Shown one piece after another: positions 4,522 to 38,398 of a DNA stretch of 47,453 bases. Both the position numbers and the translations under genes were made by a program. The DNA comes from a virus (taxonomy: Duplodnaviria > Heunggongvirae > Uroviricota > Caudoviricetes). The notes beneath the pieces are model-generated. The model ran no database searches. It was not told the origin of the DNA and saw nothing but the letters and a program-made list of their open reading frames with translations. Within the stretch, counting starts at the first letter, position 1. Every line of letters begins with the position of its first letter. The stretch lies in IMG/VR virus record IMGVR_UViG_2778261248_000001, one strand, 5' to 3'.

Positions 4522-5048
4522 TTGCGTAACTCCGATAACTCGTTAAAACGTTCCATAAACATCCCGTAGGCATGGCTAGGTGCCAGTGGAATCACGTTGA
4601 ACATCTCTGTTGCCGGGATGCCTTCCAGTACAGGCCAGAAAGAGCCATCATCAAGCCCGAGATCGCGGCGTTCGGTTGCCAGCATGATAAGATCGGCATA
4701 TTTCACGGGCGTACTCATAACTGGGGGTAACCCGTATTTCTCACGGATTACGGCGTCAATTTTTTCTTCCATCCGTTTATAGTCAGGAAGAAGGCGTTTC
4801 AGTGGAGCGGGAATATCCTGGCAATACGCTTCTGTTGCATCATGCATTAACGCTTCAAAAGCAAATTCCTGCGGCACCAGCTGGCTGCAAAGCACCGCAT
4901 GTTGGGCGACACTGTAGAAGTGAGAAAGATGACCGGCAAAGCGGCAGATATTTGAAAGGGAAACCGCGATATCGTTAATCACGATGTCGTCTTTATTTAT
5001 CTTGTCATAATAAAAATGCTTCCCGGAAAAAGTTTTAATAAATGACAT
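4512..5048 (-). CDS. yfdR: HD-domain phosphohydrolase (YfdR-like 5'-deoxynucleotidase family)
   Basis: ATG at 5048 with GGAG 8 nt upstream gives 178 aa (ORF track used an upstream GTG at 5075); His and HD...E residues (FAGHLSHF, LMHDATEAY) consistent with HD hydrolase; resembles the CPS-53 prophage YfdR as I recall it. Confidence 0.65.
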   Translation of the reverse strand: MSFIKTFSGKHFYYDKINKDDIVINDIAVSLSNICRFAGHLSHFYSVAQHAVLCSQLVPQEFAFEALMHDATEAYCQDIPAPLKRLLPDYKRMEEKIDAVIREKYGLPPVMSTPVKYADLIMLATERRDLGLDDGSFWPVLEGIPATEMFNVIPLAPSHAYGMFMERFNELSELRKCA

Positions 5049-5175
5049 TTTGTTCTCCACGTATATGCGCTGCACCGCGCTGAGTTTGGGTAAAAGGAAG
5101 CCCTCACCATCCGGTGATTATTGAGTTAATTACGTTTCCATAAATGCCCCCGCAGGGGCATTTGCAGTAATGAAA

Positions 5176-6065: not shown

Positions 6066-6428
6066 TTAATGACCTGCTGCGCGTAGTTTTCCGTCAGGTT
6101 CACCGGCAAGAGTCAGTAATTGTCCCTGGTCTTCCTGCAGAATAGTCAGGCGACCACCGCGATTGACATACATCGGCGTTTCGGTGGTGTCTTCTTCGGA
6201 AATTTTCCCGCGGTTAGTCGGGCGAACATATGAGAGTTTGTGTTTGATTTTCACACGGTTCTCATCAAATGGTTCGATTTCCAGGTTGAGTGAGACCTTA
6301 CCTTTGGTTTTCGTGTTCATCACACCGGAAGCGACTTCACTGAGAACTGCGCCGATTTTGGTTTCAAATACGCCGCCGTCCAGCTCCCCGATAAATGCCT
6401 GCACATCAGTACTGCGTTCGCTAGCCAT
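6066..6428 (-). CDS. YfdP-like phage early protein
   Basis: ATG at 6428 (MASERSTDVQAF...) with GGAGCA SD; 120 aa; the 197-aa ORF-track extension upstream reads like out-of-frame GC-rich sequence. Confidence 0.5.
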   Translation of the reverse strand: MASERSTDVQAFIGELDGGVFETKIGAVLSEVASGVMNTKTKGKVSLNLEIEPFDENRVKIKHKLSYVRPTNRGKISEEDTTETPMYVNRGGRLTILQEDQGQLLTLAGEPDGKLRAAGH

Positions 6429-6476
6429 TTTGCTGCTCCTCATCATATCGACCCTGCAAGGTCGGTTGGTTTCTCC

Positions 6477-6610
6477 ACAAAACAGAGAAGAACACCTGCG
6501 GTGGCAGCCGCCCGGATGGATTGGGTTATGAGCCTGTCGTCCGGTGATGCTCTTCTCTGTTTTGTAAAAAGAGCGGTACCAGCCGGAAGCAAGTGTACAA
6601 ACTGGTACCG
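6477..6610. repeat. Dyad symmetries in the early-left leader: 15-bp perfect inverted repeat (6477-6491 / 6551-6565) and 9-bp inverted repeat CGGTACCAG / CTGGTACCG (6574-6610) flanking a TGTACAA motif
   Basis: ACAAAACAGAGAAGA and its exact reverse complement TCTTCTCTGTTTTGT 59 bp apart; second stem encloses TGTACAA at 6594-6600. Confidence 0.5.
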
Positions 6611-7024
6611 CCAAAGCAGTGGCTGTTGTGGTGGGGTTGTCACTCAGGCGTATGGTCAACCTGACAATCCGGTGTCCTCAACGGGGAAAGAGTAACCCCG
6701 CCATACTTACCGCCGCGCCATTTCGCGGATTACCACAACGCTGAGAGCACTTAGCCAGTTACGGCACCACACTTTGTCGCGGCTCCATAAATGCCCTCAT
6801 CGTTGCACCCTGGTCTCTTCCCAGGCGTCAAACCGGATCGCCACGCTGGTTAGGCGTCTTATCAGCATCATCATTGACTTGCACATTCCGGCTACCTGGT
6901 TTGTTTGCCCGAGCAAGAAGTGGATTGTCCCCTTTAACGTCCCCAGACCGCTAACGACGCATGTGCCATACGCCGTGTTACAACCAAATTTTGTTTGAAT
7001 CTTGCCTGCCTCATGTTTCTTTTG

Positions 7025-7039
7025 GATACATTATGTATC
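7025..7039. promoter_or_regulatory. Palindromic operator-like site GATACATTATGTATC on the PL side of the repressor gene
   Basis: Perfect 6-3-6 palindrome; same TACAT(T/A)ATGTA core as the int-upstream palindrome at 331-347; lies just beyond the cI terminator where a leftward early promoter is expected. Confidence 0.4.
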
Positions 7040-7057
7040 TTATGGGTACATTGTCAA

Positions 7058-8093: not shown

Positions 8094-8657
8094 ATGAGGC
8101 TAACCGTGGGTAAGTATCACTGGAAAGTAGAAAAACAGCCTGAGTGGTACGTGAAAGCTGTCAGAAAAACTATCGCAGCGTTGCCGGGTGGTTACGCTGA
8201 AGCAGCTGACTGGCTGGATGTAACAGAGAACGCATTATTTAACCGCCTTCGTGCCGATGGCGATCAGATTTTCCCGCTGGGATGGGCAATGGTTTTACAG
8301 CGCGCGGCTGGCACTCACTACATTGCGGATGCTGTCGCACAGTCTGCTGGTGGGGTGTTCGTATCGCTTCCTGAAATTGAGGAAGTAGAGAACGCCGATA
8401 TAAACCAGCGCCTGCTGGAAGTCATCGAACAGATCGGGAATTACTCAAAGCAGATTCGTTCGGCAATCGAAGATGGGGTCGTGGAGCCACACGAGCAGAC
8501 AGCAATTAATGATGAGTTGTATCTGTCAATTTCGAAGCTCCAAGAGCATGCAGCACTGGTCTACAAAATCTTTTGCGCTCCAGAAAAGAGTGACGCCCGC
8601 GAGTGTGCAGCTCCGGGCGTCGTGGCGTTTTGTGTCTGTGGAGAAACTAACGCATGA
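8094..8657 (+). CDS. Early regulatory protein (cII/YdaT-position), function uncertain
   Basis: 187-aa ORF, second gene of the rightward operon; start may be GTG 8106 (GAGG 8 nt upstream). Confidence 0.45.
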   Translation: MRLTVGKYHWKVEKQPEWYVKAVRKTIAALPGGYAEAADWLDVTENALFNRLRADGDQIFPLGWAMVLQRAAGTHYIADAVAQSAGGVFVSLPEIEEVENADINQRLLEVIEQIGNYSKQIRSAIEDGVVEPHEQTAINDELYLSISKLQEHAALVYKIFCAPEKSDARECAAPGVVAFCVCGETNA

Positions 8658-9490
8658 ACAGTTTAACGGCAAATAACCGTTTGTCGCAACAGCTGGTGGT
8701 CAGTGTCGCTGAACACCTGTTGTTACGGCATGAATGCAGATTACCAAATCACCTGGCTGTAAGTAACCACAGAGAACTTTACCTGACTGTGGGGGGCGAG
8801 TTGTGCGGGAACTTAACCGCTGGTTTCGTGACGGAAGAGGGCTTTATGTCCATGTTATTCGTTGGGAACCAGAAACACAGCGCGTTATCTATCTTCGCAA
8901 AGACTACCCGCATGAGTGCTTTAGTCCTTTGTGGAAATTCAGGCGTGATTTTGTTGAGTGTGAAGGACCACCAGCACATTGATTCTGCCATTCCGGGACG
9001 TTACACTGTTCAGGCACCTTATAAAGCGGGTGACGGGATTGGCGTCCTGGAAATGTTATCGGCGATATATGACGCGCCAGCGTCTTTTTTATCGTCTGCG
9101 TCTGTGCACACCCAAATTATGGTGGGCTGGACGGGGGCACCGAAAGGTGCGCCGGTTTCCGATAACGCCGGTTACGCCAACCCCGTTCAGTTCACCACCA
9201 GCGAAATTGGCGTTTCCGGTGGTGAAGGTAATTCACTGTTATCGGAGGCTGCCATCATGGCTACTGTCCCAGCCCTCACTCGTCTGAATGATGAAGACTT
9301 ACATAAACTCAGTTATGTAACAACTGCACTACGTGCTCTGCGCAAGGTAACTCTTTCGGATCCGCAGGCGCATCAGGTTTTGGTAGAAACCCTTCTTAAC
9401 TTGCAGGCTGAACGTATTCGTCTGGCGGATAAGGCTAATTTTCATATTCACCGTCTCCTGAATATCAGCGGAGGGCATCGTCATGCTTAA
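8654..9490 (+). CDS. Hypothetical phage early protein
   Basis: 278-aa ORF, ATGA start/stop overlap with upstream gene; alternative-frame ORFs in the same span look like out-of-frame artefacts. Confidence 0.45.
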   Translation: MNSLTANNRLSQQLVVSVAEHLLLRHECRLPNHLAVSNHRELYLTVGGELCGNLTAGFVTEEGFMSMLFVGNQKHSALSIFAKTTRMSALVLCGNSGVILLSVKDHQHIDSAIPGRYTVQAPYKAGDGIGVLEMLSAIYDAPASFLSSASVHTQIMVGWTGAPKGAPVSDNAGYANPVQFTTSEIGVSGGEGNSLLSEAAIMATVPALTRLNDEDLHKLSYVTTALRALRKVTLSDPQAHQVLVETLLNLQAERIRLADKANFHIHRLLNISGGHRHA

Positions 9491-17029: not shown

Positions 17030-17329
17030 AAAAATTCCTTAATACTGATAACTTGGCGCACTATACACACGTTCCTGAAGAAAGCTATAGTTTTTTGATG
17101 GGGTTGAAGATGGCTGGATGTCTAAAATAAACATTGCTTCATATGTTCAACTATGCGTTAATGATTGCGTCGGTTTGAAGAACAGACGATATACGAAGTA
17201 GTTTACTAAAGCAGTTCTCATTTCAGGTGTTATTCACTTATTCCTTCTTTGAGTCTCTCCAATTAAGTACGAAGTCGTTTCTGTTATACAAGCCATTTAT
17301 GCCGAAAGGCTCAAGTTAAGGAATGTAGA

Positions 17330-17545
17330 ATGTCAAATAAAATGACTGGTTTAGTAAAATGGTTTAACGCTGATAAAGGTTTTGGCTTTATTTCTCCTGT
17401 TGATGGTAGTAAAGATGTGTTTGTGCATTTTTCTGCGATTCAGAATGATAATTTTCGAACCTTATTTGAAGGTCAAAAGGTTACCTTCTCTGTAGAGAGT
17501 GGTGCTAAAGGTCCTGCAGCAGCAAATGTCATAATTACTGATTAA
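17330..17545 (+). CDS. cspB: Cold-shock protein CspB-like
   Basis: 71 aa, [38 protein letters not shown] (RNP1/RNP2 motifs); long AT-rich 5' leader. Confidence 0.85.
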
Positions 17546-17826
17546 AATTAATAGTTTGTCTGTATACGATAACGAAGAAGGCTGATGCCTGAGTGGAGAT
17601 ACAGACAGAGTGGTGAATATTGGATCTCTTTAATAAATAGTAAGGAGATCCAATACATGAAACAATGGCCAGCATATTTGGCAATAACTTAATCAGGAAA
17701 AGTATGCTAACCATTGTGGTGAAGTGCAGGTTTGCTGCATGAATAGTTTTACAGCAGAAGCTAACTGCTAGCATAGCAAAACAAAGTGCGTAAGTGGATG
17801 ACTCCCACAAAAAGCACCACAATATT

Positions 17827-20418: not shown

Positions 20419-20781
20419 ATTAATATTAAATCGGATTATTTTTAGCGCTGAATGTGAAATTTAAATAAAAAGGACTCTTCCATGAGTCAAAATCCTTGAA
20501 ATCTTAAGGGTAAGATAAAAGGTCATTAGACAGAATGACACGTTTTATTAATAAATAAAGCTATTGTTTCATTCGTGTGTTTTTCTTTACAAAAGTAATC
20601 CTTGCTATGGTTGGTTAATCATGCGTTAATGGTGTTCTGGTTTGTTACAAAATTATCTGAAGCAGTCATTGTTATAATTTTATTATTTGTACCTCTTGAG
20701 ATTTCCTTGTTGGTTTTTCTCTCTGATATTTTTTTTCGGACCATTCTGCCCAAGGGCTAACTTCTTCAAAAGGTAATAATG

Positions 20782-20994
20782 ATGTCTAACAAAATGACTG
20801 GTTTAGTGAAATGGTTTAACCCTGAAAAAGGTTTTGGTTTCATCACGCCGAAAGATGGTAGCAAAGATGTGTTTGTCCATTTCTCAGCTATTCAGAGCAA
20901 CGATTTCAAAACGTTAACTGAGAATCAGGAAGTCGAATTTGGTATTGAGAACGGACCTAAAGGCCCCGCGGCTGTTCATGTTGTGGCACTTTGA
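20782..20994 (+). CDS. cspI: Cold-shock protein CspI-like
   Basis: 70 aa, [45 protein letters not shown]; long AT-rich leader. Confidence 0.85.
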
Positions 20995-21193
20995 GGTAGA
21001 AAATATTACAAACCATATTCACTTTAGATGCCCGTGTTGCCATGGTTCTCAGTATAGAACATCATCTTTTGATGTTTCTGACAGGAATCCTTTCGGGGCA
21101 AAATGTATCTTTTGTAAATCAATGATGATTACATTTGATAATATTTCACAATACTTAAATGTTAGCCGTCTGTCGTTAGATTTAAGAAAGTGA
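20978..21193 (+). CDS. Small zinc-ribbon protein (CPCC ... CIFC), hypothetical; overlaps 3' end of cspI-like gene
   Basis: 71 aa from ATG 20978 (ORF track began at TTG 20939); Cys pattern resembles the 17909-18079 protein; no clear SD. Confidence 0.3.
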
Positions 21194-37859: not shown

Positions 37860-38398
37860 AAACGGGAGCCGAAGCCATCCGGGCGCTGACCACGCAGCTA
37901 CCGTCGTTTCGCCAGAAACTGAATGAGGGCTGGTATCAGGTGCGCATTGCCGGGCGTGATGCAGGCGAAACCGAATTATCTGCCCGTCTTAATGAGCCGC
38001 TGGCAAATGGTGCCGTGATCCACATTGTGCCGCGTCTGGCGGGAGCTAAAAGTGGCGGTGTTTTTCAGGCAGTGCTGGGTGCGGCGCTAATTGCTACGGC
38101 AATCTGGATGCCAGGAATCAGTATCGCTTTCAGTAACATTCTCTTTTCTATGGGGGCAGCGATGACGCTTGGTGGTATCGCACAGATGCTGGCCCCTAAA
38201 CCCAAAACTCCACGTACACAGACAACGGATAACGGCAAACAGAACACCTATTTCTCCTCACTGGATAACATGGTTGCCCAGGGCAATGTCCTGCCTGTTC
38301 TGTACGGTGAAATGCGCGTGGGGTCACGTGTGGCATCTCAGGAGATCAGCACGGCAGATGAAGGGGATGGTGGTCAGGTTGTGGTAATTGGGCGGTAA
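37757..38398 (+). CDS. I: Tail tip assembly protein I
   Basis: 213 aa, MAATHTLPLASPGMARICLYGDLQRFGRRIDLRVKTGAEAIR... as lambda gpI; central region diverges from lambda. Confidence 0.85.
   Translation: MAATHTLPLASPGMARICLYGDLQRFGRRIDLRVKTGAEAIRALTTQLPSFRQKLNEGWYQVRIAGRDAGETELSARLNEPLANGAVIHIVPRLAGAKSGGVFQAVLGAALIATAIWMPGISIAFSNILFSMGAAMTLGGIAQMLAPKPKTPRTQTTDNGKQNTYFSSLDNMVAQGNVLPVLYGEMRVGSRVASQEISTADEGDGGQVVVIGR

Follow-up and report, generated by a model that had tools for sequence, protein, structure and literature searches.

We showed that the early-left leader of a lambdoid prophage (of the cdtI / 2H10 / Ayreon / Stx2c-phage kind), carried by the 47,453-nucleotide viral record IMGVR_UViG_2778261248_000001 (the window, to which all coordinates refer unless stated otherwise), is no gene remnant but an array of four folded, co-transcribed RNA modules. 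This untranslated leader (about 594 nt; 7022-6429, minus strand; no annotated gene) consists of a large pseudoknotted RNA (module A), a tRNA-like cloverleaf (module B), a hairpin and intrinsic terminator at the position of the sRNA (small RNA) DicF, and a long hairpin (module D). Module A is a covariation-supported RNA family that occurs in about 25% of the complete Escherichia coli genomes and is currently unannotated, a finding that stands even if the function proposed below is wrong. Modules A and B are outside Rfam and unannotated in RefSeq; DicF, STnc100 and put are already known. As to function, we tentatively propose, with slightly less than even confidence, that the leader would be an sRNA-producing, terminator-gated unit, in which module A would act as a polymerase-bound antiterminator related to put, the RNA element of the phages HK022 and HK639.

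A preliminary description of this region, made from the letters alone, had reported a GC-rich leader with two inverted repeats, and had suggested a structured regulatory RNA, an anti-termination element or a decayed gene. The composition was borne out, with a GC content of 0.51-0.56 over positions 6300-6999 versus 0.36-0.48 in the flanks. Folding prediction, one of the checks that it had called for, gave z = -4.3 relative to shuffled sequences for the full 594-nt leader, and RNA hairpins for both repeats; the covariation found in the four modules strongly supports the structured regulatory RNA. The perfect 15-bp repeat, for which we estimate a chance expectation of about 4e-4 in 900 nt, extends to 25 nt at 84% complementarity (arms 6477-6501 and 6541-6565), and the repeat given as 9 bp is in fact a perfect repeat of 10 bp (6573-6582 and 6602-6611). 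The two 3' hairpins on which the description had focused are thus real, but it had missed both the terminator and the most conserved element of the leader, in the 5' half (6984-6743). BLAST comparison with phage genomes revealed that the leader is a mosaic, the sub-segments of which match different phages: 6429-6633 is common to SfV and SfII, 6617-6739 to PPompW-type phages, and 6733-7004 to TL-2011b-type Uetakeviruses, the core of this last segment being also present in P1, P7, D6 and SJ46.

Module A measures about 180-240 nt, including a clamp helix that reaches down to 6743, and its core spans 6984-6803 (minus strand, like all features of the leader described below). From 5' to 3' it comprises the helix P1 (6975-6971 / 6959-6955; loop UAUGGCACAUG); the helix P2 (6951-6943 / 6899-6891), with an irregular region of G-A, G-U and U-G pairs; a near-invariant 19-mer, GGUAGCCGGAAUGUGCAAG (6896-6878); the variable hairpin P3; the helix P4 (6857-6854 / 6846-6843); the covariation-supported pseudoknot PK2 (6851-6848 / 6834-6831); and the helix P5 (6825-6821 / 6813-6809; loop GAAGAGA). 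The clamp helix P6 (6798-6792 / 6749-6743), recognized by inspection, encloses a variable insert, for which lengths of about 40-190 nt are tolerated, and closes module A, abutting the next module. Elsewhere, the two P6 strands change jointly from GAGAGCA/UGCUCUC to GAGCGCAC/GUGCGCUC, as judged by inspection and not by a count of pairs.

The family was sampled by an exact search with the 19-nt invariant block, which yielded at least 120 viral contigs and at least 99 distinct cores. In an alignment of 34 representatives less than 95% identical to one another (alignment A3), the proposed pairing of P1, P2, P4, P5, PK2 and the other, candidate pseudoknot, PK1, holds in 96.2% of the cells, versus 27-45% with slid partners. 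Thirteen pairs are altered on both sides, and none of 500 shuffles attained the observed values; in PK2, one pair covaries (A-U in 4 sequences, C-G in 30). The covariance model of module A (R2) assigns 146.6 bits to the single copy of the window and 120 bits to an independent, divergent copy in the Klebsiella phage Kp4866-6. Outside E. coli, it confirmed the family in Kosakonia (two species), Phytobacter and Escherichia whittamii; a pattern scan of contigs for taxonomic range was flooded by chance matches, and only the taxa confirmed by R2 were counted. The same model finds no module A in HK022, HK639, Qin, CPS-53, SfV or ST64B. By megablast, 1331 of the 5426 complete E. coli genomes carry module A. 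The Rfam covariance models, another of the proposed checks, returned no match in the leader, module A included, at gathering score or E ≤ 10, and full-text searches of the available literature for conserved strings of modules A and B retrieved no paper. The published sRNAs Pas, AgvB and AsxR were considered and rejected, as they belong to the late region and not to this leader.

Module B (6739-6625) is a tRNA-like cloverleaf with a pseudoknot, supported by covariation over 61 distinct sequences: 95% of the cells are paired, versus 35-59% when slid, and the closing stem, H3 and the pseudoknot each contain compensatory changes. It is built from a 7-bp closing stem (GUUGUGG / CCACAAC), the helices H1 (6728-6724 / 6717-6713), H2 (6700-6696 / 6686-6682) and H3 (6670-6662 / 6642-6634), and the pseudoknot (6706-6701 / 6655-6650). 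An identity as a genuine tRNA was rejected, since ARAGORN found no tRNA in the window and Rfam gave no tRNA match; the resemblance lies in position, 7-bp closing stem and four-way shape only. Module B is 89% identical to the untranslated region that immediately precedes dicF in the K-12 prophage Qin (ydfC-dicF interval), and a homologue also follows Pban in phage P1. At the position of module B, ST64B carries a unit with a GUGG...CCAC stem that scores 35 bits (E = 5e-5, below the gathering score) with the STnc100 model (RF02076), and mEp460-type leaders have a similar unit that this model does not match. Module B differs from these in being the Qin-type variant, and the STnc100 model has no match in the window, module B included.

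The hairpin at the DicF position (6612-6566) consists of a 13-bp stem (6612-6600 / 6584-6572) followed by CUUUUU, i.e., a strong intrinsic terminator (-21.2 kcal/mol, z = -4.1) located about 455 nt into the PL transcript, upstream of yfdP. A simple terminator scan misses it because the loop is 19 nt long. The TGTACAA string, previously taken for an operator-type motif, is the loop of this hairpin, and it is not an operator because the loop varies among homologues. In alignment with Qin dicF, UUUGGCGGUACCAGUUUGUAC corresponds to DicF nt 13-32 at 18 of 20 positions, the two hairpins have UUUGGCGGUAYCAGUUU in common, and both lie in a repressor-controlled early operon with genes past the terminator. 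A three-way alignment with Qin and P1 also reveals that the 5' end of DicF falls opposite a gap of 23 nt and that the loop is different (that of DicF pairs with ftsZ), and the stem is longer than in DicF. The Rfam DicF model (RF00039) gave no match at E ≤ 10 in searches of 901 nt and 221 nt. Because DicF nt 1-12 are absent, the loop differs and the Rfam model is negative, we call the hairpin DicF-derived and not DicF, and because of this negative model its targets, if any, probably differ from those of DicF. As judged from these alignments, the terminator hairpin is the positional homologue of DicF, and module B is the homologue of the Qin pre-dicF untranslated region. SfV has a putative rho-independent terminator annotated in its own leader, outside the stretch that matches the window.

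Module D (6565-6477) is a long hairpin (-49.3 kcal/mol, z = -7.8) with the apical motif GACRGGCUCAUWACCCAAUCCAYCCGG, the base of which is formed by the 15-bp repeat. Its arms show several compensatory changes in Salmonella ST64B and Klebsiella Kp4866-6, where the hairpin is kept. The apical motif (GACGGGCNCAUAACCCAAUCCA) recurs inside the P6 insert of module A in two viral contigs (L038 and L067), with a different closing helix, which suggests that it may be a small mobile RNA motif with a function of its own.

Module A starts about 47 nt past the PL start in the window, and it also directly follows PL in two other phages, mEp460 and mEp390, the latter HK022-like. In Uetakeviruses, it heads a short unit that follows a TTGACA promoter between the terminase and portal genes, antisense to the late genes; in P1, it lies between tRNA-Ile (trnI) and ban. 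In the stretch with the P1 ban operon (L006, own coordinates), module B (4863-4956, after Pban and overlapping the annotated 'dicF-like region') and module A (2501-2685) are both unannotated. Among the 121 listed instances of module A, a tRNA-Arg occurs at +160 in 25 and module B at virtually the same offset (+158) in 22; in the 16 P1-type instances a tRNA with a CAT anticodon precedes module A, and most of the remaining instances have a downstream unit with a GUGG...CCAC closing stem. Of the distinct 200-nt regions upstream, 14.9% contain promoter-like sites (at least 10 of 12 matches), versus 1.4% of control windows, i.e., an enrichment of about 10-fold. A crude test of the strand of the open reading frames (ORFs) downstream of module A gave 54 versus 52. 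The put element and module A were never found together (0 of 62 and 0 of 98 sampled loci), and some put loci then carry the same kind of cloverleaf and DicF-like units. It turns out that phage leader RNAs follow a recurrent modular grammar (large RNA, tRNA-like unit, sRNA-terminator), of which the dicF locus is one instance. ROOL and GOLLD are large phage-associated structured RNAs found beside tRNA genes, and they resemble module A in being prophage-borne, highly structured, without known function and adjacent to tRNA genes; they differ from it by the lack of sequence or Rfam similarity, by the host range (here Enterobacteriaceae) and by size, module A being much smaller.

None of 9 of the 10 largest early-left ORFs (at least 55 amino acids) matched an antitermination family or an N-type protein, the only matches being to integrase, excisionase, phosphatase and families without known function. 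No N-type antiterminator being found in these ORFs, we therefore propose that module A is related to put, with the following lines of evidence. First, put and module A share their location, a short distance downstream of the early promoter of lambdoid phages in which no N-type antiterminator is found, HK022 having Nun in the place of N; here, P1 starts at 6975 and PL lies at 7057-7030. In the same vein, a 2025 survey reports that LLS, the early-left operon of which is like that of ST64B and phiNP, is without an N homologue and "may have" a mechanism of the put type; ST64B is likewise reported to be without N, and the late antiterminator Q of LLS is nearest to that of 2H10 (PMC12315714). Second, three collinear blocks are common to module A and put, namely ACGGCG, CAUGCGUCG and YGGAAUGU. 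In block 1, the P1 strands ACGGCG / GCGUCG are identical to the lower stem I of put (A9-G14 / C30-G35) in all five pairs, including the G-U wobble. In block 2, the CAUG ahead of the 3' strand of P1 corresponds to the C26-G29 bulge of put, which contains U28, the uridine inserted in a pocket of the beta-prime zinc-binding domain (PMC9378689). The P1 loop has 11 nt versus 15 nt in put, and in both RNAs the next helix comes immediately, an irregular stem containing tandem G-A and G-U pairs. In block 3, 17 of 73 put instances have AACUGGAAUGU (also written AACUGGAAUGUUUUG) 4 nt past stem II, the Klebsiella module A has this 11-mer after P2 (AACUGGAAUGUGCAAG), and the window has CCGGAAUGU after P2 (also written CCGGAAUGUGCAAG), with the tail GGAAUGUGC. 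Third, in our reading of the sequences, this YGGAAUGU tail of the put subset is complementary to the loop of stem I, as it is to the P1 loop in module A (AUGUGC-GCACAU here, AUGUUUU-UAAACCAU in put), a complementarity that would be the sole, and indirect, covariation for PK1. The chance of blocks 1 and 2 is roughly estimated at 3e-4 (a BLAST E value of 0.12 for a 13/15 match, times about 0.002 for the placed hexamer), to which block 3 adds an 11-mer.

We propose that, after repressor loss, module A would fold first on the PL transcripts, most of which would end at the DicF-position terminator. The ended transcripts would be cut at the tRNA-like module, as RNase E cuts DicF in Qin, to yield a DicF/STnc100-type small RNA. 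The expression of yfdP, yfdQ, yfdR, xis and the genes beyond would require read-through of the leader terminator and of the hairpin in the yfdQ-yfdR spacer. For this, module A would stay on the transcribing RNA polymerase by way of the beta-prime zinc-binding domain, on which its P1 stem and CAUG bulge would dock, and would make the enzyme resistant to terminators. The larger 3' domain of module A (P3-P6) and the second pseudoknot would be additions without a counterpart in put.

The following points weigh against this proposal. The put model (R1), built on 17 sequences (HK022 putL and putR, HK639 putL and 14 viral-contig homologues), recognizes its controls (97 bits for HK022 putL, 86 for HK639 putL and 53 for HK022 putR) but gives no match in this leader at E ≤ 10 with filters off, nor any in the leaders of mEp460, mEp390, ST64B and Kp4866-6. 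Conversely, R2 gives no score to HK022 or HK639. Module A is not filed as a member of put because the put model is negative, whereas the silence of Rfam is uninformative in this respect because put itself is absent from Rfam. Several hallmarks of put are missing from A3: the column equivalent to the essential G35 is mostly C, otherwise U or A, and not conserved; the upper stem I (A3-G7 / C15-U19), with its triple helix, is absent, as is the internal loop of stem II (GGCGGG / CGGCAAU). In addition, put has about 74 nt versus 180-240 nt for module A, which has the extra P3-P6 and second pseudoknot. No covariation of PK1 is seen within the module A family, where both strands are near-invariant and single variants break or weaken the pairing; because re-sampling with a seed outside PK1 gave only single, uncompensated variants, the support for PK1 consists of its invariance and of the comparison with put. 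The apparent conservation of the family is inflated because it was gathered with exact sequence seeds. With R2, the window has one copy of module A and no putR-like partner for the PR operon, a situation comparable to that of HK639, which is also annotated with a single left-operon copy. In P1, module A lies in mid-operon after a tRNA and is not promoter-proximal. Finally, module A is lacking in Qin, where module B and DicF are present, and yet dicB lies downstream of the terminator. An anti-termination element, as formerly suggested, is plausible on account of the internal terminator, the three put blocks and the lack of an N in the scanned ORFs, but it is not one that the put model scores.

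In the 815-nt leader of ST64B (stretch L357, about 1290-1420 of it, minus strand), a put-like-looking stretch, ACACGGAGCCGUUUAACCCACGGCGUCGG ... CCUGUAGCCAGUGCAAG, obtains no score with either R1 or R2 and may represent an intermediate or else a third family. In HK639, an 'M3-like RNA' is annotated at 37910-37969, downstream of cII in the right operon, beside the single putL-like RNA.

The chief rival to a put-related antiterminator is a purely non-coding RNA operon, in which module A would be a trans-acting RNA without effect on the polymerase, module B a processing handle and the DicF-like hairpin an Hfq-type sRNA, the read-through into yfdP being a leak. We regard it as rather unlikely, while noting what it accounts for. 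DicF and STnc100 are known prophage sRNAs (PMC5069750; bioRxiv 10.64898/2026.05.13.724894). The same order recurs from locus to locus (module A, followed by a unit that is a tRNA, tRNA-like or STnc100-like, and lastly by a DicF-like terminator), the Uetakevirus unit is self-contained with a promoter of its own, antisense to its neighbours, and Qin reads through the DicF terminator without module A; the strongly conserved unpaired segments of module A would also suit the binding of a conserved cellular partner. This rival, however, accounts neither for the three collinear put blocks, including the polymerase-contacting stem, nor for the constant position of module A 5' of terminator-containing units, nor for the replacement of put and module A by each other after PL in related phages, and no target or partner of module A can be named.

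It is improbable that module A serves as a sensor, whether a riboswitch or a switch binding a tRNA or a protein, through which the host state would decide what happens at the downstream terminator or how the adjacent tRNA or tRNA-like unit is processed. A pseudoknotted multi-helix fold with near-invariant junctions, in a 5' leader upstream of a terminator and consistently adjoining a tRNA or tRNA-like module, is what such a sensor might look like. But the distance to the terminator (about 200 nt, with one whole module in between) leaves no overlapping expression platform; no mutually exclusive alternative pairing is evident, and no Rfam riboswitch model matches. Moreover, a generic role in transcription fits better than metabolite sensing because the downstream genes (yfdP, ban, small moron ORFs) are functionally unrelated.

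A canonical lambda-type nut site (boxA plus boxB), or a canonical HK022 put site, is very improbable, and this reading is largely refuted by the put model search, the three put blocks of module A notwithstanding. The leader does occupy the same place in the genome as lambda N and nut, with the same need, given the terminators within the early-left operon, and the string CGCUCUU at 6576-6570 (minus strand), followed by U, has 7 of the 8 positions of the lambda boxA. This string is the 3' arm of the terminator plus its U-tract and is not conserved in homologues, so that its likeness to boxA is probably a coincidence. Furthermore, no N gene was found in the scanned ORFs, and no boxB is reported, no model search having been aimed at it.

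As regards coding capacity, the preliminary description held that no ORF of 60 codons or more was plausible on the transcribed strand. Mechanical ORFs of at least that length do exist there, i.e., a 66-amino-acid ORF with a GTG start (6443-6643), which matches phrog_33599 (59 bits), and an in-frame TTG extension of yfdP (from 6659), in addition to a 39-amino-acid ORF (6797-6916); the 66-amino-acid ORF is not conserved. Mechanical ORFs of 64 and 74 amino acids also occur on the plus strand of the leader. Alignment with related prophages had been proposed as a check: in the phage Kp4866-6, stop codons break the 66-amino-acid ORF while the overlapping hairpin is retained through compensatory changes, and in homologues the 39-amino-acid ORF is destroyed by indels that are not multiples of three. 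A decayed protein-coding gene, e.g., a lost N or a lost moron, for which the short ORFs annotated automatically over the leader in Ayreon, mEp460 and cdtI and the phrog_33599 match might speak, is extremely improbable and was rejected, as the compensatory changes that keep the helices alter amino acids on both arms, the frames are broken, the tested leader ORFs match no Pfam family, no RefSeq/PGAP gene lies under the module A match in the 12 complete E. coli records listed of the 1427 matching records (1331 genomes), and the same modules occur in non-homologous gene contexts. As a separate observation, phrog_33599 is probably made of ORFs mis-called over an RNA hairpin, the 66-amino-acid ORF having stops in Kp4866-6 where the hairpin is kept.

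Upstream of the leader, on the minus strand, lie a LexA-type repressor gene (7771-7097, Peptidase_S24), the cI terminator (7085-7066), directly upstream of PL, and the strong promoter PL itself (TTGACA-16-CATAAT, 7057-7030, 11 of 12 consensus matches), which overlaps operator-like repeats (GTAYC..GRTAC) and has a predicted transcript start near 7022. At the other end, a small hairpin (6466-6447) is followed by a Shine-Dalgarno sequence (AGGAG) ahead of yfdP (6428-6066, RefSeq name; phrog_204 match), the first early-left gene. Then come yfdQ (DUF2303), yfdR (phosphatase), two ORFs without known function (4521-3539) and xis (3539-3345). The yfdQ-yfdR spacer contains a GC-rich hairpin (AAAUGCCCCUGCGGGGGCAUUU, about 5132-5153, minus strand), which is likely a second terminator of the early-left operon; a terminator is annotated in this spacer in the Ayreon record. 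Elsewhere in the window, Rfam matches to isrK (55 bits) and C4 antisense RNA (83 bits) occur at 9014-9202 (plus strand), inside the ORF 8654-9490, and coincide exactly with the Pfam Phage_ASH match (amino acids 117-210) of this 278-amino-acid ORF; either the ORF is a real gene that these RNA genes overlap, or translated RNA genes underlie part of the protein family. The cspA thermoregulator is matched over its full length at two places, 17169-17608 and 20624-21040 (plus strand; 159 and 110 bits), and the prophage therefore has two cold-shock-protein genes with regulatory 5' leaders.

To our knowledge, put is the one small family in which processive antitermination by RNA alone has been described, and cryo-electron microscopy has revealed how its 74 nt of RNA reprogramme RNA polymerase. 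More speculatively than the proposal made above, module A might form a second class of antiterminator RNA that rides on the polymerase, much larger than put and either derived from it or ancestral to it, in the prophages of a quarter of E. coli strains, in P1 and in Uetakeviruses; or, more radically, it might be a new functional class of RNA, a ribozyme or a sensor, acting on the adjacent tRNA or tRNA-like unit, the put-like stem being a shared docking motif only. PHROG families, and possibly Pfam families, appear to have been made from ORFs mis-called over leader RNAs. If the kinship with put is true, a distant relative three times larger, in which only the docking stem, pocket uridine and tail of put remain, would reveal the minimal polymerase-docking core of put, and it would explain early-gene expression in common lambdoid prophages where no N is found, including those of Stx2c- and cdt-converting phages.

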